Source: Pelagomonas calceolata
Taxonomy: Eukaryota
Reading direction: 5' to 3'
Assembly (NCBI GenBank): GCA_918797485.1
Contig: CAKKNE010000002.1
Coordinates: forward strand, 2,542,001-2,606,000
Length of the DNA: 64,000 nt
Shown here: positions 9,047 through 52,263 of the stretch, in pieces
Position numbering within the stretch: position 1 is the first letter of the stretch
How the letters are laid out: every line of letters starts with the position of its first letter
The notes under the pieces: generated by a model
The model's input: only the letters and a program-made list of their open reading frames with translations
What the model was told of the DNA's origin: nothing
Database searches by the model: none
Program-made: the position numbers and the translations under genes

Positions 9047-9442
9047 GGTTTCTGCGGTCGCGTCGACGACGTAAGCGGCGGCGAGAGCAGCGCAGCGATT
9101 GTGCAAGGGCAGTGGAGCGGCCTAGGCGCAAATCACAGCTCACAGACCTCAACGTAGGCGTTGCGAGATGATAATCAGCAACCCTAGACTCGCAGAGAGG
9201 GGCTTATCGTGCTGCACGACCAGGTTTTGGGTGCGGCTGGGCTTGCTAGTGTCTTACAGGACGCTAGCTCCACTCTGTCGATCGCGGCAGTCGCTAGCCC
9301 GTCCGTCTGGCTGGTAAAACGAGCCCGCGGATACGTGCATTAGTCCTCTATACGTGTAACAAAACGACAAAGCATCAAACGCTGCGCTAGTCGTGTAGCT
9401 CTCACAGCGAGTCAGCACCTGCCCACAGCGAAGCGCAAAGCG

Positions 9443-18777: not shown

Positions 18778-19076
18778 GGGGGCGGCGGCACCTAGTTGCT
18801 TGTTGCTATTTGCGCGGCGCGTGTTGAATGGCACGCGGCTGGCGTGCGTCGAGGACTCGCGTGCGTCGAGAAATATACTGTTCACGTGTGACTGCGAGCG
18901 CTTTCGCCGCGGCGGCCGCACAGCTAGCTAGCGGCATGTAAGACACTAGCCGGGGTCATTTGTCGCGCAAAGAGCATGGCGCGAATGCTGGCGCTCTTGA
19001 GATTGATCCTGGTCGTCTGGCAGACACGCATCTCTCCCCGGCGGGAAAATATAAGTTCACAGTAGTAGTTAAGACT

Positions 19077-26838: not shown

Positions 26839-27544
26839 CTAGTCCTCCGCGGTGAGGTCGACGACGGCGTCCTTCTTGGTGCGCTTTTCTTGCGGCGGGA
26901 GGAAGCCCGGCGAGTCCAGGTACTGCGTGTCGGGCTCCTCGGCCTTCCGCTTTGTCGGCGATGGCGTGCGGCCGAGAAGCGCATTCACGAGGGCGACGTT
27001 CTCGTGGTCTTCTTCCGAAGCTTCGAGAACTTGGTCGAAGCGTTCGCCCTTGCCGATGGGTTTCTGGCGATTCTTGAGCATGCCGACGAGGCCCGCGACC
27101 TTGCTCGGGTTGTTGAGATCGCCGTCGTGCTCGCCTCTGGAGGCGCGAGCCTTGGCGCGCTCGATGCACGTAGACACGTCCGCCGTGAACCGTAACGCGA
27201 CGACCTCGACGTTGCAGCGCTTCGCGATCTTCACCCAGTGCGAGCGCTGCTTCGGGTCGAGATCGGTACGATCCACCTGTGTGGAAATCAAACGTCGAGC
27301 GTCCCGCTCAGGTCCCGCGCCAATGCGGCGCCATCGACACGACTTCGTTAATTTCCACACTGCGACGTGCGTAGGCCACCTTGCCCGCTCGCACGGTCTC
27401 CTCGACGAGCGCCTCGACCTTCTCGCGCCGTTTTAAGAGATCTTGACAGCAGCGGACGGCGTCGGGAAGAAACTTCTCGTGGAAGCGCGACTTGCCGGCG
27501 CCGGGCAGGCCGACGGCGACAATTACCAGGCCTTTGCTTTCCAT
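26839..27544 (-). CDS. P-loop kinase (AAA_33/polynucleotide-kinase-like), exons 27544-27371 and 27276-26839
   Basis: IVAVGLPGAGKS Walker A; splicing restores KVAY|VDRTDLDPKQRSHW...CIERAKAR in frame (203 aa). Confidence 0.85.
27277..27370 (-). mobile_element. Introner-like GC-AG intron (94 nt) with 15-bp TIRs
   Basis: Minus strand GCACGTCG + CAGTGTGGAAATTAA...TTGATTTCCACACAG; removal is needed to join the two kinase frames. Confidence 0.85.
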
Positions 27545-27829
27545 GATTCTTCGGCGGTCTCGCGCGTGATTATAGGCGCCCGGCGCGCGGCGACCAGTAA
27601 TATGAGATATGATCTATCCGCAGGACTGGACAGGCAAGCGCGCACGTTGGTTGACCAACCAATGAGGCGACGGCCGTCCAATAAAAACCCACGAACAACC
27701 CCGCTCGCGCTAGGGGCGCGTAACCAAGCCCAATACGTCGAGCTAGCGGCCTGTAAGACACTAGCAAGCCGCAGAGGTCGCAGATTTGGACCTAATTAGT
27801 GGTTATACATTGCATCTCTGCGCGCAAGC

Positions 27830-29800
27830 ATGGCCCCACAGCTGCCAGCATCCGCGCTCGCAGCGATATCTGGCTACATTGATCGGGAAGAGCCAGCTGA
27901 GCCACCAGCCCCAGCAAGGCCCGCGGCAGCCGCGGCCGCCGCTGCGCCTCCACAGCTGCCGGCAAGTGCTCTCGCAGCGATTTCGGGATACATCGACCGC
28001 GAGGAGCCGGCTGCACCACCGCTGCCGCCGCCCGCACCGGCTGCGCCGCCACCGGCGCGCGACCGCGAGGAACAAACACTCAGAGAAATCGAGCCGCTCG
28101 ACGCCTCCGCCGTCTTCGCGCTGCTGCACCCGGACGGGCCCGGCTACGCGGTCGTCGACGGCGTGTTGGGACAAGAAACGGCGCGGAGGGCGGCCCGCGC
28201 GGCGGCCGCCGCACGAACACAATTGAAGCGCGCGCGCGTCGGCCGCGGCGACGCGCGGCGCCTCTCCGACGAGCGCACGGACGAGGCCGCGTTTTTGGAT
28301 GAGAGGAGCCAGCACCCCGATTTGCAAGTGCTCTGTCACGCGCTGCGGAAACTGCGGTCCTCGCTTTGTGTAGGAGGCGCCTGGGACGACAAGGCCGCCG
28401 AGTTACGTTTGGATGCAACAACAACCTCGACGCAGCTCGCCTGTTATCAGCCGGGCGGGCGCTACCGGCGCCACGCGGACGCGTTGTCCGATGACGACGC
28501 GCGGCAGCGCGACGCGCTGCGCGGCAAGCCTCTGTTAACGCGCAATCGCCGGATCACGGCGGTCTATTACTTAAATGAAAACTGGAATCGTGAAGATGGC
28601 GGCGCGCTCCGCATCTATGCCGATACATGGACGCCCGACGCCCAACCTTTTGATGTTTTACCTCGATTGGACCGCCTCGTTTTGTTTAGGAGCACTCTAC
28701 AACATGAGGTCCTCGTGACGCGCAGGGAGCGCCTCGCGCTGACGCAGTGGTGGTACGGCCGCATCGACGATGATAACGAGCGCGTGCCGTGGCGGCTGCC
28801 GGCGCCGGGTAGAGCCCTCTCTGGTTTATCGACCGAGGGGCGAATTTTTGTTTCCGTGGCCGCGTACCGAGATCCGGAGACGGAGCGGACGCTGCAGCAC
28901 TTGTTCGCCACCGCGAAGAACCCGAAGCGCGTCCGTGTGGTGGTCGTGCAGCAGTACGACTGTCTGGAGGGGAGCGATGATGATCTGGTAGGAAGGCTAT
29001 ATAACCACGAGGCGGAGGCGCGCGTGACGCGGATACGCGTCGATTTTCGCGACGCGAACGGCCCGTGTCCCGCAAGGGCGTGCGCGCTGCGTCGCTTGAC
29101 TGATGAAGACGACTTCGTCCTCCAGATCGACAGCCACACGCGCTTCCGCAGCCACTGGGACGCGTATCTGATCGATCAATTAGCCAAGTGTGATAGTAAG
29201 GAGCCCGTGCTGACCGCCTACCCCGCGGACTACGACAAGGATTCAGCTGCCCTACCTTCCGACGTGCGGCCAACTCTGTTAGTCCCCTCGGGCTTCGACA
29301 AGGACGGCGTGCTGCGGATCAAGGGCCGGCGGCTCGCGCGGGTTCACGAGGAACCGATCCCGTCGCCGCTCTGGTGCGCCGGGTTCTCCTTCTGTCGAGC
29401 TAAAGTGTGGCGCCGCGTCACATACGAGCCGCTTCCCCATTTATTTTTTGGCGAGGAGCTACTGCACGCCGCTCGATTGTTTTGTAGTGGCTGCGACTTC
29501 TTCGCGCCGCCCGAGCAGGTGATCTTCCACCGCTGGTCGCGGAGCGGACGGCGGACGCTCGCCGAGGACCAGCCTCGTCGAAACGCGGCGGCCGCGCGCG
29601 GCCGCGCCTTCGAGCTGCTCGAAACAATTGAAGGGCCGCGGTCGCTCGCCGCGTTCGAAGCAAGGGCGGGCGTTGATTTGAAAAAGCGCGTCTTATTGCC
29701 CGGCGCCGACCGGGGCGGCCTGTCCCCTGAAGCGTTCGCCGACGGCGCGTCGTCCTCCGCGGGCGCGCAGGTCGCGGCGCTGCTGGGGCTGAAGCTTTGA
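27830..29800 (+). CDS. Fusion of 2OG-Fe(II) prolyl-4-hydroxylase (PhyA/EGLN-like) and GT60 GlcNAc-transferase (Gnt1-like)
   Basis: YRRHAD (28472), RRITAVYYLNENW..DGGALRI, PRLDRLVLFRS..HEVL..RLALTQW; then IFVSVAAYRDPE, GPCPARA, LQIDSHTRF..WD (29129), VLTAYP, WCAGFSF, LFFGEE. Confidence 0.88.
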   Translation: MAPQLPASALAAISGYIDREEPAEPPAPARPAAAAAAAAPPQLPASALAAISGYIDREEPAAPPLPPPAPAAPPPARDREEQTLREIEPLDASAVFALLHPDGPGYAVVDGVLGQETARRAARAAAAARTQLKRARVGRGDARRLSDERTDEAAFLDERSQHPDLQVLCHALRKLRSSLCVGGAWDDKAAELRLDATTTSTQLACYQPGGRYRRHADALSDDDARQRDALRGKPLLTRNRRITAVYYLNENWNREDGGALRIYADTWTPDAQPFDVLPRLDRLVLFRSTLQHEVLVTRRERLALTQWWYGRIDDDNERVPWRLPAPGRALSGLSTEGRIFVSVAAYRDPETERTLQHLFATAKNPKRVRVVVVQQYDCLEGSDDDLVGRLYNHEAEARVTRIRVDFRDANGPCPARACALRRLTDEDDFVLQIDSHTRFRSHWDAYLIDQLAKCDSKEPVLTAYPADYDKDSAALPSDVRPTLLVPSGFDKDGVLRIKGRRLARVHEEPIPSPLWCAGFSFCRAKVWRRVTYEPLPHLFFGEELLHAARLFCSGCDFFAPPEQVIFHRWSRSGRRTLAEDQPRRNAAAARGRAFELLETIEGPRSLAAFEARAGVDLKKRVLLPGADRGGLSPEAFADGASSSAGAQVAALLGLKL

Positions 29801-30036
29801 TTTATTATAACGTTGTGTTTTCTGTTCCGTTGTGGATGCCTGGTTGGAATTCGTCCAGGAAAGCTAGTGTAGTGACACACTAGTAATAGGCGCCGCACTG
29901 AACCACCGCGCATCGCGCACAGTCGTCGTGCGCACGGCCGTTTAGCGGCAAATACACCGCCGCAAAGGCAGTCACACGCTGCGACGCCGCCAGCGCGGCG
30001 CACGGAAGAGCCCTGTGATTCACTGCTAAGCTGCTT

Positions 30037-32121
30037 ATGGTACAAACGCACGCGTACTTGAGGGGCGCGGCCACGCTGGCCTTCCAGGCCTACCAGTACC
30101 AGCGACGCCTGGACGAGGGCGACGACTCCCTGAATTTGGATTTTAACACGGGGTCGAAAGCCGGCGACGCCGTCCTCACTTGGTTCCTTGTATTTGTGAT
30201 GGTCTTCCTGTCGGCCATGTTTTCTGGTCTTACCTTAGGGTTGTTGGGACTGGACAAGACGGGGCTGGAGATCGTCATGGGCGGCGGTTCGCCGCAGGAG
30301 CGCGCGGACGCGAAGGTCATCTATCCCATCCGCGAAGACGGTAATAGATTGCTGTGTACCTTATTGTTGGGCAATGTGGCCGTCAACGCTTTGTTGAGTA
30401 TCACTCTAGCGGACATCGCGTCGTCGTTGATAGGCTTCTTCGCCTCCACAGCACTGATTGTCATCTTTGGCGAGATCCTGCCTCAAGCACTTTGTAGTAG
30501 ATACGCGCTCCGAGTCGGGGCGTCGTCCATGCCTCTCGTGAAGTTCTTCCTCATCATATTAGCGCCGGTCGCGGTACCCTTAGCAAAGGTCCTGGACTAT
30601 TTTCTCGAGGAAGACGTGGGAACAGTGCATACAAAAAATGAGATGATGCACTACTTGAAGCTCCACGCTAAAAGGGGCGGCCTGGACAACGAGTCCGGTT
30701 TAGTGATGCGCGGCGCGTTGGAGATGAAGGAAAAAAGAGTCAGAGAGGTGATGACGCCGCTCGAGGACGTGTACATGTTACCGGAGTCGACACGCCTGTC
30801 GTTCAAGGTCGTCAGGGAGATCTTCGAGCAGGGGTTTAGTCGGGTCCCGGTCTTTCGGGGAGAACGGCAAAGAATAGTAGGATTGCTCTTCGTGAAGGAC
30901 CTGATTTTTGTGGATCCCGAGGACGAGACCGCATTGACGTCGTTGTTAGGTATCTTCGCAAGAGGTTTGCAGATCGTGGACGAGACCGATAGTCTGGATG
31001 ATGTCTTGAGGATCTTCAAGGCCGGCCATGGGCATCTCGCGTTGGTGAGGCGAGGCGAAGTAACGAAGAAATTAACAGCGATCCAAGAAGACAGTAACGA
31101 GTCCAAGGAAGTGGAATTAACAGAAATGGGCGCGCCGCCCGTACCTGATCAAGCACCGTCGGTTTTCGTTGGGATAGTCACTCTAGAAGATATCGTCGAG
31201 GAAATTCTCGGCGACGAGATCATCGACGAGACGGACGTCTTTGTGGACGTGGACAACCACGTGAAAGTTGCTGGAAGATCTGATTTTGATTTTACCAAAC
31301 TAAGAAGGCTGGACGCGGAGTTTGTTGATGAACGCTTGAGTCCGGAGGAGGTGCAAGCGGTCACTAGTCATCTACTCACGAACGTGAAGGCTTTGCGACG
31401 TTCGACAACTCTGGATCGGGACGAGATGGCGCAATTAGTACGAAGATCAAGAGTTGTGGAGATAAGACGCAAGTCCAAGAACCCGCATTCCGACAAGATT
31501 CACGCGCAGGATCGGATCTATGTCCGGGGCGAGGCCGCTTCTTATGCTACGCTCGTGTTGAACGGCAAGCTCAGTGTCCTAGCGGGTGTTGATGGGTTCA
31601 GAGCCGAGGCCGGGCCCTGGACTGTGCTCGGGGCTGACGCCCTTGTGTCGGATGAAGGGTCATTTGTTCCTGATTTCAGCGCCCACGTGGCTACGGATAG
31701 CGTGCGCTGCGTCCATGTCACTAGAGCCGAATACGAGCGGGCCATTACGGGTCGAAGAAGGAGAGGGAGGCGAGGCATGGGGACGGACGGCGAAGAGTCC
31801 GATACTGGTAGGAGGGCGCGGCTCGGCCGGCGCGGCGAGATGGCCGAGAAGCGCCGACGTTTAGCAAGGATGGCCGGTCAAAATAGGGGCGCGCGCGCCG
31901 GCCGCGCGGCGCTGGACCAGTTCCGGGGCGAGCAGACCGGCGCGATGTCCGACGGCGAGCGGCCTTTGGCGGCGGCCCGCGGCGAGGAGAGCGGCGCGTC
32001 GTCCCAGGCGTTGGATGCGCTGGACGTGGGCTACGCCTCGGACCCACAACTCGGGTCGTCTCGCGAGGACCTGCTGGCGAATGCCACGAGCGGGAACGAG
32101 AGCGGGAGCGACGTGGACTGA
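30037..32121 (+). CDS. CNNM/CorB-type metal transporter (DUF21 + CBS pair + cNMP-like domain)
   Basis: SAMFSGLTLGLLGLD, LLCTLLLGNVAVN, IFGEILPQALC, GFSRVPVF, GIVTLEDIVEEILGDEIIDETD. Confidence 0.93.
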   Translation: MVQTHAYLRGAATLAFQAYQYQRRLDEGDDSLNLDFNTGSKAGDAVLTWFLVFVMVFLSAMFSGLTLGLLGLDKTGLEIVMGGGSPQERADAKVIYPIREDGNRLLCTLLLGNVAVNALLSITLADIASSLIGFFASTALIVIFGEILPQALCSRYALRVGASSMPLVKFFLIILAPVAVPLAKVLDYFLEEDVGTVHTKNEMMHYLKLHAKRGGLDNESGLVMRGALEMKEKRVREVMTPLEDVYMLPESTRLSFKVVREIFEQGFSRVPVFRGERQRIVGLLFVKDLIFVDPEDETALTSLLGIFARGLQIVDETDSLDDVLRIFKAGHGHLALVRRGEVTKKLTAIQEDSNESKEVELTEMGAPPVPDQAPSVFVGIVTLEDIVEEILGDEIIDETDVFVDVDNHVKVAGRSDFDFTKLRRLDAEFVDERLSPEEVQAVTSHLLTNVKALRRSTTLDRDEMAQLVRRSRVVEIRRKSKNPHSDKIHAQDRIYVRGEAASYATLVLNGKLSVLAGVDGFRAEAGPWTVLGADALVSDEGSFVPDFSAHVATDSVRCVHVTRAEYERAITGRRRRGRRGMGTDGEESDTGRRARLGRRGEMAEKRRRLARMAGQNRGARAGRAALDQFRGEQTGAMSDGERPLAAARGEESGASSQALDALDVGYASDPQLGSSREDLLANATSGNESGSDVD

Positions 32122-34838: not shown

Positions 34839-36545
34839 TTAAGCCACGACAACAGTCTTCTCGCGCGCCCAGCGCGACGCTTGCCCGTCGCCGTCCGCGA
34901 GCGCGGCGACGACCTCGGCGAGATTGTCGCACGCGGCGCACGTCTGCTCGAGCTCCGCGGGGGTGACGTCCTGCGACGCCCGGGAGTCCCAGGCTTGCCA
35001 GAAGGCGCCCATTTCGAGCGCGTCCATTTGTCGCCGCAACACGTAGTGCTCAACCATCTGGCGGGCCTCGGTGCGTTGTACGTAGCCGAGCCGTAGCCGC
35101 ACGTCGACGCGGCCCGGCCGCACGAGGGCCGGGTCGAGCCGCTCCGGGTGGTTCGTCGTCATAATTAAGATTCTGTCCGGCGTATCCACAACACCATCGA
35201 GCACGTTGAGGATTCCCGACAAGTCGAGCCGGTCGCGGGTCGGCTTTAACGCGCCCGTTAACGCCATCGTGGGGCCGGAGATTGCCTTGTCGTCGCCATT
35301 GAAGAGGCACTCGAGCAAAGCCTTGATCGGGTCGCCGTCTTTCTCCATGGGCGCTGGCGCCGGCGCAGGCACCGGCTCGGGCGTCGAACCCGACCGCTTA
35401 AGCACGACCGACGACGCCGCGTCGACGTCTTCCAGCACGAACACGGTCTGCTTGAAAGTTAATCGAACGGGCACGTCGGCGTCGGCCACGCCGTACTTCA
35501 TGTCGAAGACCGCGTCGAAGAGCTCCTGGTTCGTCTTGATGCGGCCCAGCGGGATCGAGACGATAGAACGGTCCAACCGCGCCGCCAGGGCCTTGATCAG
35601 CGACGTCTTGCCCGTGCCGGGCGGGCCGTGCAGCAACACGCCGAGCTTCTTCGGCGAGCCCTTGACGGCAAATCGCCCGGCACCGGCGTGGAACGCGTCT
35701 AGGAGCGACAGCAACTCGTCCTTCTCCGGGAAGAAGAGCGAGTCGAACGTCTTCGACGCCGCGAGGCGGTAGCGCTTGTACGTCGCCGCGCCGGATCCGT
35801 CGTCCGAGTCGTCGTCCTTGGCGCCGCCGCCGCCGCCCGCGCGGACGTAGAGGTGCCGGCCGCCGGCCTCCTCCTTCGCCGTCTGCTCGACGTACGCGTC
35901 GAAGGCCGTCTCCAGGAACGCCTCGATGGGCGAGAGCTCGTCGCACGCCAGGCGGAAATCGATGGACGTCGTCGAGTTGTCCTTGCCCTCCTCCTTGTCC
36001 TCCTGGCCGTCGTCGACGGCGCGCATCACCTTCAGGTCGCCGGGGGCGCCCGGTACCGACACCCACACGTCATCGGGCACGGCGGACACGACGTCGTACT
36101 GCCTGAGGAGCGCCGACGTCGTCCCGAAGGACTTGTTCCAGCGGTGCCTGCCCGCGCCCTTCTCGGAGGCGCCGCGCGCCAGCAACCGGAGCTTCGCGTC
36201 GTCGGCGCCGTCGAGCGCGCCGCACCGGACTAGATGCCAGGCGATCGCCTTCTGGAGCACCTCGTTCTTCGCCTCGGGCTCGATCTTGGAGCCGCGGCCC
36301 CAGCGCGTCGGGCGCCGCTCGACGCGGACGATGCGCTCGAAGCGCTTCTTGCGTCGCAAGCCGGTGCCGGCCGCAGAGCGGATCACGTCCCGCAGCCGCT
36401 CCGACGACGTCGCGACGAGCGCAATGAGCGTCGGGAGGAACGCCACCACGAAGAGGTCGACGTTTCTGTTGCCCGTGCGCAGGGCGTTCATGAGCCCGAG
36501 CTCCAGCGCGCCCGTGCCTCCTCGGTTGTCGCCGCCGCCCGCCAT
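34839..36545 (-). CDS. BCS1-like AAA ATPase
   Basis: KTFDSLFFPEK, GVLLHGPPGTGKTS, FVLEDVD, LDLSGILNVLDGVVDTPDRILIMTTNHPERLDPALVRPGRVD. Confidence 0.9.
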   Translation of the reverse strand: MAGGGDNRGGTGALELGLMNALRTGNRNVDLFVVAFLPTLIALVATSSERLRDVIRSAAGTGLRRKKRFERIVRVERRPTRWGRGSKIEPEAKNEVLQKAIAWHLVRCGALDGADDAKLRLLARGASEKGAGRHRWNKSFGTTSALLRQYDVVSAVPDDVWVSVPGAPGDLKVMRAVDDGQEDKEEGKDNSTTSIDFRLACDELSPIEAFLETAFDAYVEQTAKEEAGGRHLYVRAGGGGGAKDDDSDDGSGAATYKRYRLAASKTFDSLFFPEKDELLSLLDAFHAGAGRFAVKGSPKKLGVLLHGPPGTGKTSLIKALAARLDRSIVSIPLGRIKTNQELFDAVFDMKYGVADADVPVRLTFKQTVFVLEDVDAASSVVLKRSGSTPEPVPAPAPAPMEKDGDPIKALLECLFNGDDKAISGPTMALTGALKPTRDRLDLSGILNVLDGVVDTPDRILIMTTNHPERLDPALVRPGRVDVRLRLGYVQRTEARQMVEHYVLRRQMDALEMGAFWQAWDSRASQDVTPAELEQTCAACDNLAEVVAALADGDGQASRWAREKTVVVA

Positions 36546-36953
36546 TCCTATATTGTGTCGTTATGCAAGAGATTACTTTGTTTGCGCGTTTTTTGTTTGG
36601 CTGCCCCAACTCTGGCAGAGCGCGCTTTTGGAGAGTGTTCCTCAATATATCCTTCGGAATGACGCGGCACCATTACGGGGCGTCTAGGGACGAGTCTAAG
36701 GACGGATCTATGCTTCCGCTTGGAACTCCTAGAAGCAAGTTCCTGGGCCAAGGAGCATCGCTCCCAGAGGCTGCCCAAATCACGTCAACCGTCGCATAGA
36801 ACGCGACCACGACGCTGCAATTTGTGCAAAAGACACCAGCAACCACGTCTCCAGCAACCGCATCCAGAGGCGTGCCGTGGCGACGGCGGCGGGGACGACG
36901 GAAGCTGCAGACACAGCAAAACACTCGCTACACACAGCAAAACACTCGCTGCA

Positions 36954-38654
36954 ATGTCGCACAACGCGACTCACACTATGGACAAGGAGCACGGGGCCAC
37001 GGCGTCGTCGCTCTGGACGATCCTCGCGGCCGTGGCGCTGCCGCTCATCTTCAACGCGCTGCTCGAGCAGTCGCAGAGCGCGCTCGTGAACTACGTCAAC
37101 GCCTGGGGCAATTGGCTCGCGGGCCTCGTGGACGGCGAGCAAGTCTCGCGCGTCGTCGAGCGCGTCGAGGTCTTCGACCGCAACGGGTACGGCTGCGGAG
37201 GCGGCGCCGACGACGAGGACCGCAACGAGATCCTCATCACGGCCGTCCTCGCCTACGCGTCGGCGCATCCCGTTAAGGGTGAATTGACGGCGCGCGTGAG
37301 CTTGCTGCCGCAGGATGTCACGCACTCAAACGACGACTCGGACTCGGACGCCGACGAGCCCTACTCCGCGGCCGGCGAGCTGCGGAAATTAAGGGTCACG
37401 ACGCGGCCGGCGCCGGACGTCGACGTGACCGTGGCCGAGGCGTCGGCCACGCGGCCGCGCGTGCGCCTCCGCCTCACGCGCGCCTCGAAGACGAAGAAGG
37501 CCGACGAGAAGGCCGCGTCGGCGGCCTCGGGGCAGACGACCGTCACGACGACGCTGCGCCTGGCGGCCTGCGGCGCCAAGGCCGAGGAGGCCATCGACGA
37601 GTTCGTGGACCGAGCCTTCGCGTTCCACGCGGCGCGTTTGAAGCGAGCGGAGGACGCGCAGGGCCGCTACATGTTCACGCCCATCCCGGACTCTGACGCC
37701 TCCTGGAAGAAGTACCGGCTCTCGGACGAGAAGACCTTCGACTCGTTGTTCTTCGCTGAAAAGGCTCGCGTGCTGTCTTCGCTAGACGCCTTCGAGGCCA
37801 AGACGGGCAAGTACGAGATCCCCGGCTTCCCGCACAAATTGGGATTGCTGCTCTGGGGCCCGCCCGGCACGGGCAAGACGTCGTTGATCAAGGCGATCGC
37901 CAACAAGACGCGGCGCCACGTCGTCAACATCAAGCTGTCCCAGGTCGGCACGAACCAGAAGCTCGCCGACTGGCTCTTCGACGAGCGGTACCACGTCGAC
38001 GGCGAGGCGACGAAGGTCGCGGTGAACGAGTGCATCTTCGTCTTCGAGGACGTCGACTGCGTCTCTGACGTCGTGCTCTCGCGCGAGGCCAAGGGCGCCG
38101 ACGCGGCGCCGGCGGGTTCGGATGATCGGTTGTCGCTCGCGGGGCTCCTGAACGTGTTAGATGGGGTGGTGGATTCTCCCGGTAGAATCGTGATCATGAC
38201 GTCGAATCACCCGGAGAAGCTGGATCCGGCGTTGGTTCGTCCAGGACGAATTAATTTGGCGCTCTACCTCGGCTTCGTCACGGCGGATTCGGCCAGCGCG
38301 ATGGTCAAGCACTACTTCGGCGACGACGGCTCGGCCGTCGGCGTCGCCGTCGATGCGCTATCGCGTTTCGACCGGCGCTTCTCGCCGGCCCAGCTCGAGC
38401 ATTTGTGCGCGACGCACGCCTCGGCCGCGTTACTGGCGCAGTCCCTCGCCGCGATCCTCGACCGCGCTCGCGCGGACGCAGACGTCCATGAGGTCCAAGC
38501 TGTCCTCGACGACGTCGTTGCGGCCGTCGTGGCGCGTGCAGACAGCAAGGAGGAGGCGCCCCTCGTTGCGCGCGTTTCGTCGGAGTCGCTCGCGGATCTG
38601 GAGAAGAAGGCCCCGTGCCTACGGCGATCCGTCTCCGAGGCCGGGGCGCCCTAG
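36954..38654 (+). CDS. BCS1-like AAA ATPase (paralog, divergent orientation)
   Basis: N-terminal TM, KTFDSLFFAEK, GLLLWGPPGTGKTS, FVFEDVD, LSLAGLLNVLDGVVDSPGRIVIMTSNHPEKLDPALVRPGRI. Confidence 0.9.
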   Translation: MSHNATHTMDKEHGATASSLWTILAAVALPLIFNALLEQSQSALVNYVNAWGNWLAGLVDGEQVSRVVERVEVFDRNGYGCGGGADDEDRNEILITAVLAYASAHPVKGELTARVSLLPQDVTHSNDDSDSDADEPYSAAGELRKLRVTTRPAPDVDVTVAEASATRPRVRLRLTRASKTKKADEKAASAASGQTTVTTTLRLAACGAKAEEAIDEFVDRAFAFHAARLKRAEDAQGRYMFTPIPDSDASWKKYRLSDEKTFDSLFFAEKARVLSSLDAFEAKTGKYEIPGFPHKLGLLLWGPPGTGKTSLIKAIANKTRRHVVNIKLSQVGTNQKLADWLFDERYHVDGEATKVAVNECIFVFEDVDCVSDVVLSREAKGADAAPAGSDDRLSLAGLLNVLDGVVDSPGRIVIMTSNHPEKLDPALVRPGRINLALYLGFVTADSASAMVKHYFGDDGSAVGVAVDALSRFDRRFSPAQLEHLCATHASAALLAQSLAAILDRARADADVHEVQAVLDDVVAAVVARADSKEEAPLVARVSSESLADLEKKAPCLRRSVSEAGAP

Positions 38655-51170: not shown

Positions 51171-52263
51171 TGTGCGTTGTTTTGATGATGTCTATGGGCA
51201 AAGGATTGGTTGTTTTTCGGGTCTCGAGCCGAGGCCTTTTCTTTTGAGGGGCTCGCAGTACTGGTCGCGTGTGCTGCTGGAGGCACCACTGCAGCGCTGG
51301 CGCTATCAGTGGTGTACAGAACCGCCTAAGTTGTGTGTTTTGCGGTGCTTTCTAAGGCAGGAGCAAACTCGAGGAGACATCCTAGTGTGTGTGTGTTGTT
51401 ATAGCCTAACCCCCTCGCCCGCTAACGAGCGGTTGCGAAAGACGAGACTTGCTGCCCCTCACAGCCCCAGGAGAACTCCAACGGGAAGCTTCCGTCGATC
51501 TTGATCGGAGGGCGGTTCTTCCGTTCCCCCGTCGGCCGACGTGCCTAATCACCCGCCGCTGCACCCACCGACTGACAGAAACCTCGGGACTGTGACTAAT
51601 AAAGACGCGAGTCATCGTTCGTCATGGCGCTATGAAGCAAACTCTATATCAGAACCCGATTACTGACCAGTACGATGGGGGCTCATGCCCGAGTGTCCGC
51701 ACCAAGGAAGAGCAACTGGGACAGATAGGTCACGATGAGTCGATCACCAGTCCCAGAGCCGGCTCCAAGGCAGTGACTATTAAACTTTGGGTAACTTGGT
51801 CAGAACACCGTCGTTCATGAGCAACGCCTGCGAGACAAAACAGAAAGAAGAGAAAACGCACCGTGTCAACGCGGCCTTCGTGCCGAACCAGGAGATCGTC
51901 GAGCGGAGGGCCCGGCCGCCGCGAAAAAGGGTGCCGGAGAGCATGACCCAAGGTGAAGTCTGTTCTCAGCGGGCGTAGCCGCGTTCGCTGCCGGGCCGGC
52001 CTTCCCGGGACCGCCAGGGGGTAAGCTACGAGCTGCACGCAGCCTCCCAGTGTGCGGCGCGGCCGGGGGCGCGCACGCGCACAACGCAGAGGTTAGTGCC
52101 TAGTGCCTTACAGAACGCTAGCTCTGCTTTGGGCAAAGGACTCGCATCGCTGCGCGTAAGCTCGCTAGCAGCAGCAGTCTACCACAAAAGCATCGCTGCG
52201 ACCATCGCTACGCCTATTTCGACAGATTCGGCAAAATACGTACTGAGCAGTGAAAACCCAGCG

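Follow-up and report, generated by a model that had tools for sequence, protein, structure and literature searches.

A transcribed single-exon fusion of a PhyA-type prolyl hydroxylase and a GT60 glycosyltransferase in a marine alga: a probable two-step modifier of Skp1 with a doubled N-terminal motif

The window analysed here, a 64,000-nucleotide stretch of Pelagomonas calceolata DNA, carries on its forward strand a single-exon open reading frame whose product (P0001) joins a prolyl hydroxylase to a glycosyltransferase. The gene and its parts are as follows:

27830-29800, forward strand: single-exon ORF of 656 aa encoding P0001, the PhyA-Gnt1 fusion (ORF call, Pfam, reads)
27836-27898, forward strand: N-terminal repeat copy 1, aa 3-23, with the motif at aa 5-17 (sequence; predicted helix at 7-14, low pLDDT)
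27950-28012, forward strand: N-terminal repeat copy 2, aa 41-61, with the motif at aa 43-55 (sequence; predicted helix at 45-55, pLDDT about 60-77)
28085-28762, forward strand: PHD/PhyA-type 2OG-Fe(II) prolyl 4-hydroxylase domain, aa 86-311 (Pfam, PDB match, fold, conserved residues H215, D217, H292, R301 and Y247)
28763-28840, forward strand: inter-domain linker, aa 312-337, with low pLDDT at 325-334 (AlphaFold2 model)
28841-29698, forward strand: GT60 (PF11397) GlcNAc-transferase domain of GT-A fold, aa 338-623, with D434-S-H436, E542, E543 and H567 (Pfam, fold, conserved residues)

The frame has no internal stop, is unspliced and is transcribed. In 300 base shuffles of positions 27001-31000, the longest stop-free frame averaged 192 aa and reached at most 310 aa, as compared to the 656 aa observed. 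One contig of run X5, which is labelled RNA by an automatic guess, spans 27978-29817 and includes both domains, with 0 differences and 0 gaps relative to the window. Sense-strand reads from X21 (144 reads) and X23 (98 reads), both stranded polyA raw reads from one sample, cross the domain junction with no joints. The depth of these raw reads is 0 at 27805-27905, and the 5' end is carried by contigs of X5 (27779-27985) and X11 (27910-28053). No in-frame ATG was found upstream of the P0001 start. Judged by hydropathy only, P0001 has no leader or membrane stretch; the highest Kyte-Doolittle value for any 19-residue stretch is 1.2 and falls in an alanine run at residues 33-51. ORF call, Pfam, residues and hydropathy thus agree with the first-pass annotation, which had described a stop-free 656-aa ORF with an HxD...H...R dioxygenase, a following GT60 domain with its DSH motif, and no signal peptide.

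The direct neighbours of the gene encode a PPR protein and a CNNM transporter, and a Pfam scan of 47 of the 97 ORFs of at least 200 aa in the window gave no match to Skp1, to an F-box protein or to a gene acting later in the pathway; the fusion gene therefore does not lie in a pathway cluster. The window is rich in genes and in GC, and these features and the relatives suggest a stramenopile alga, probably a pelagophyte. The window holds four copies of a 22-base element that begins and ends with CTAG (27743-27764, 9246-9267, 18928-18949 and 52100-52121; 0 in 100 shuffles), the first of these copies being located 66 bases upstream of the fusion ATG. Since reads and contigs at 27738-27774 fit partially and then continue into different sequences, the element is probably a dispersed repeat found in many transcripts. 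Further along the window, two ORFs for AAA ATPases, alike in their Pfam profiles, are arranged head-to-head, at 34842-36560 on the reverse strand and 36663-38651 on the forward strand.

The hydroxylase domain was recognized by Pfam as 2OG-FeII_Oxy_3 (aa 202-308, E 3.7e-18), and the top PDB sequence match of P0001 is Dictyostelium PhyA (6T8M, E 3.9e-13). In this alignment H215, D217, Y247, H292 and R301 fall onto H191, D193, Y212, H266 and R276, the reported metal and 2OG ligands of the Dictyostelium enzyme (PMC7864055). Among 65 full-length fusions, hand-picked for alignment out of about 100, H215, D217, H292 and R301 are invariant and Y247 is conserved in 64 (one Y247F). The AlphaFold2 model of P0001 has a mean pLDDT of 85.7, and the predicted structure contains the double-stranded beta-helix fold of the PHD type, with residues 83-320 matching PHD-type hydroxylases. 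Superposition on 6t8m gave Z 23.4 and an rmsd of 2.9 over 196 aligned residues, tied with 4iw3 and 6f0w; Pseudomonas PPHD scored Z 24.2, Trichoplax PHD 24.0 and PhyA 23.4, and Foldseek placed Pseudomonas PPHD first. As enzymes acting on EF-Tu, HIF and Skp1 tie in this comparison, the substrate cannot be read from the fold. Animal PHD2/EGLN1 and Pseudomonas PPHD share the fold and the HxD...H...R chemistry with P0001, but their substrates are HIF-alpha and EF-Tu and they have no transferase domain; animal PHDs, unlike P0001, begin with a MYND finger. Neither this finger nor the 120-aa upstream domain of PhyB gave a Pfam match in P0001 at E up to 10, and group A1 PhyA proteins are defined as lacking both (PMC6437050). 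In a P4H tree of 47 sequences, a set containing no validated PhyA, backbone supports ranged from 23 to 57 and the clade of P0001 was not joined to the oomycetes.

The match of the second domain to the GT60 family (PF11397, GlcNAc) is strong (E 2.5e-54), and D434, H436, E542, E543 and H567 are invariant in all 65 hand-picked fusions. We take D434/H436, E542/E543 and H567 to have the catalytic roles familiar from GT-A enzymes. The modelled residues 329-623 match polypeptide GalNAc-transferases (8v9q: Z 21.8, rmsd 3.3, 269 aligned). In the GT60 tree the domain forms a clade with the Phytophthora, Aphanomyces and Laminaria fusions (FastTree 0.95 with 151 sequences; SH-aLRT 96.8 with 50 sequences), this tree and that of the P4H domain being built on sets without Dictyostelium, Toxoplasma or Pythium sequences and without any known Golgi GT60.

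The 85 residues preceding the hydroxylase domain are Pro/Ala-rich, with two short predicted helices. The two repeat copies found there are identical over 21 residues, and 11 of their 21 codons differ (13 bases) with 0 replacements; as all of these differences are silent, they point to selection on the repeat peptide. A 13-residue pattern for the motif, composed after the data were seen, matches 19 of 81 fusions within their N-terminal 45 residues, compared to a mean of 1.0 and a maximum of 5 in 1000 shuffles; it was matched by 4 of 1021 internal stretches and by 0 of 58 non-fusion proteins. In the 35 picked sequences, the motif columns show Leu (33), then Pro (31), Leu/Ala/Val at position 5, Ile at 9 (29), Leu at 10 (23) and Phe/Leu at 12. 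The N-terminus is extended in 49 fusions; 25 of these, selected by eye, score as positive with a leave-one-out matrix, as do 2 of the 24 held out, so that about half of the extended fusions (27 of 49) carry the motif; one large fusion clade is mostly devoid of it. The copies in P0001 are divergent. They are the two best-scoring stretches of the protein under a matrix built without its own clade, a score equalled by 44 of 2000 shuffles. By eye, the motif is also present in 10 of the 19 rows that represent group A1 in the first block of Fig. S2 of PMC6437050, including the unfused Dictyostelium PhyA (LPPHIRQQILGLI), and is absent from the Toxoplasma, animal PHD and PhyB rows of that block; it carries no label in the text examined. 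The oomycete rows display one copy, as opposed to two in P0001.

The same domain order, P4H followed by GT60, was found in 94 of the best 150 representatives by a profile search, and in 89 of 150 at a stricter single-sequence setting; named carriers are Laminaria, Scenedesmus, Coccomyxa, Phytophthora, Aphanomyces and three chytrids, and the profile search with an alignment yielded no further named reference sequences. P0001 is 34% identical to a Phytophthora member (P0245/P0097) across both domains (590 aligned columns, E 1e-90). The 90% cluster of that member includes XP_008901361.1, which is assigned to group A1 in Table S2 and runs into gnt1 in Fig. S2 of PMC6437050. The 2019 tabulation in that paper comprises nine phyA-gnt1 fusions, including those of Ectocarpus and Emiliania; they resemble P0001 in their order of domains, their catalytic residues and the lack of a signal anchor, and differ in that the lineage of P0001 is not listed in that table. 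The title of van der Wel 2019 (PMID 31281925) describes the Skp1 prolyl 4-hydroxylase/GlcNAc-transferase of Pythium ultimum as dual-function, and a review describes the fusion of two pathway enzymes as frequent (PMC8724618). The PhyA-Gnt1 fusion is thus not new, as the first-pass annotation had cautioned it might not be; it is known from oomycetes and other algae, and P0001 adds one more marine alga. Among titles and abstract openings, with few subscription journals covered, no paper on the pathway in pelagophytes was found.

Several homologues depart from this arrangement. The reverse order, GT60 followed by P4H, is apparently present in 5 (single-sequence) to 6 (profile) of the best 150 representatives; five such proteins (P0183, P0198, P0204, P0226 and P0228) form one clade with a support of 1.00, which could stem from a rearrangement or from the two domains having fused a second time, and one reverse-order fusion comes from the dinoflagellate Biecheleria. 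P0084-P0086 and about 30 others lack a hydroxylase; these long proteins carry two to five GT60 domains in tandem, and almost all of them fall into a clade apart. The Scenedesmus fusion P0015 continues into an alpha/beta hydrolase and is possibly a merged gene model. In P0006 the hydroxylase half is almost that of P0001 and the transferase half almost that of P0007; this protein is likely an assembly chimera, a recombination being the other explanation.

The presence of the target proline in Skp1 was examined in a metagenome scan, which identified 62 Skp1-like loci. Four runs of the organism holding the fusion gene (X21, X1, X5 and X9) share 32 to 33 differences relative to one of these, L009, over about 500 bases; 5305 reads of X21 align to this locus, together with contigs of X1, X5 and X9, and the fixed differences number 33. 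Read by codon, all are silent except for one, Glu to Asp. Positions 800-843 of L009 show 0 differences in the organism's reads and include a Pro codon at 824-826, which is covered about 1,400-fold in X21. This proline aligns with human Glu147, the equivalent of Dictyostelium position 143. The first-pass annotation had asked for exactly this residue and had named its absence as a refutation; it is present in the organism's RNA, in one Skp1 transcript. Upstream of position 383 the organism's transcript departs from L009. In L009 itself (101-874), an apparently ubiquitin-like stretch ending in Gly-Gly lies upstream of the Skp1 frame and in frame with it. Human Skp1 carrying E147P is reported to be a substrate of both validated PhyAs (PMC7864055).

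One transcribed ORF thus carries both sets of active-site residues, in an organism whose Skp1 has the target proline. We consider it very probable that this ORF encodes an intact fusion of a PhyA-type hydroxylase and a GT60 transferase, a likely orthologue of the PhyA-Gnt1 fusion known from other protists, which hydroxylates the conserved C-terminal proline of cytosolic Skp1 in an O2-dependent manner and then adds the first GlcNAc. The PhyA-Gnt1 identity proposed in the first-pass annotation is borne out by the best match to 6T8M, the aligned ligand residues, the group A1 relative in Phytophthora and the GT60 clade, and its cytosolic placement is consistent with a hydropathy profile lacking leader and membrane stretch. 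By analogy with Dictyostelium and Toxoplasma, the hydroxylase would use Fe(II), 2OG and O2 to act on the proline of free Skp1; GlcNAc would be moved from UDP-GlcNAc to the hydroxylated Skp1; and other glycosyltransferases would then lengthen the glycan. The result would be a weakened Skp1 homodimer and an altered repertoire of F-box proteins, as a weaker homodimer and a changed F-box loading are reported for modified Skp1 in these two organisms (PMC12101541, PMC3515798). O2 sensing in this alga may be expected on the same grounds. P0001 shares with Dictyostelium PhyA/Gnt1 and Toxoplasma PHYa/GNT1 the metal and 2OG ligands and the target proline in Skp1, and differs in that their hydroxylase and transferase are encoded by separate genes.

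The most likely effect of the fusion is to ensure co-expression and co-location of two steps, and channelling need not be assumed. One alternative is that the same enzyme is truly channelling, hydroxylated Skp1 reaching the transferase site without release. The retention of the fusion over many lineages, apparently also in reversed order, would fit this scenario, as would the wording of the above review, 'possibly supporting processive processing' (PMC8724618). We nevertheless regard it as unlikely: phyA and gnt1 are separate genes in Dictyostelium, Toxoplasma and others, and the linker in P0001 is short and poorly predicted. The study of the Pythium dual enzyme, moreover, reportedly found no kinetic evidence for processivity. 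An additional (and somewhat less probable) scenario is that the fusion modifies another cytosolic protein, besides or in place of Skp1. Enzymes of close fold do modify EF-Tu and HIF, and the backbone of the P4H tree lacks resolution; however, the target proline is retained in Skp1, the homologues belong to the published Skp1 clade, and the N-terminal motif is common to P0001 and the validated Dictyostelium PhyA. That two adjacent genes or an assembly artefact were read as one ORF, or that the glycosyltransferase is secretory, is very improbable and largely refuted, for in spite of the low raw-read depth at the 5' end and the apparently chimeric homologue P0006 in the databases, there is neither a stop nor a joint, a single contig covers both domains, the architecture is identical in 94 of 150 representatives, and a hydrophobic leader is absent.

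The Skp1-modifying fusion favoured here would simply add a further marine alga to the range of a pathway already known from protists. The fusion also offers a compact handle, being one gene whose expression is seen both in cultures and in metatranscriptomes from the ocean; its loss would be expected to abolish the whole Skp1 glycan, a test of the relevance of O2 sensing through Skp1 in a photosynthetic cell.

A new lead from this analysis is the doubled N-terminal helix. The motif resembles helix 1 of the F-box (PF12937, PF00646) in its Leu-Pro start and hydrophobic spacing. Each copy in P0001 consists of one helix followed by a low-complexity linker, as opposed to the three helices of an F-box of about 45 residues, and does not qualify as an F-box; genuine F-box domains bind Skp1 at the surface of its helices 5-7. 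Among 39 proteins scanned, P0225 gave the sole F-box-like Pfam match (positions 2-23 of 47, E 0.14), the other 38, P0001 included, having no Pfam F-box; the P0001 N-terminus alone, used as a query, retrieved no F-box from the PDB or the Atlas.

One tentative explanation, which we hold to be possible rather than probable, is that an N-terminal helix of PhyA enzymes, whether fused or single, mimics an F-box and holds free Skp1 at its F-box site, thereby selecting or opening F-box-free dimers for hydroxylation and glycosylation, and that its doubling in this algal lineage would allow one enzyme to hold both halves of a dimer. The helix might then dock the enzyme on Skp1. In line with this, the probable substrate is Skp1 and one weak F-box-like match was seen among the 39 proteins; recognition of Skp1 by PhyA is, in addition, considered to draw on determinants beyond the active site (PMC7864055), the question that this lead touches. 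The Skp1-modifying enzymes are also reported to be inhibited when Skp1 is bound by an F-box protein (PMC12101541). Arguing against docking are the single helix and the lack of an F-box match in P0001, and also the motif-less Toxoplasma PhyA, whose apparent Km for its Skp1 (202 uM) is lower than that of Dictyostelium PhyA (350 uM) (PMC7864055). The helix could instead lie against its own enzyme or have a binding partner other than Skp1. Among titles and abstract openings, with few subscription journals covered, no paper describes the motif as an F-box mimic. The crystallised Dictyostelium PhyA construct starts at residue 60, and that structure therefore lacks the motif. A strong N-terminal motif was also observed in three fusions from chytrid fungi (P0181, P0225 and P0229), two of which are annotated 'Egl nine 3'.
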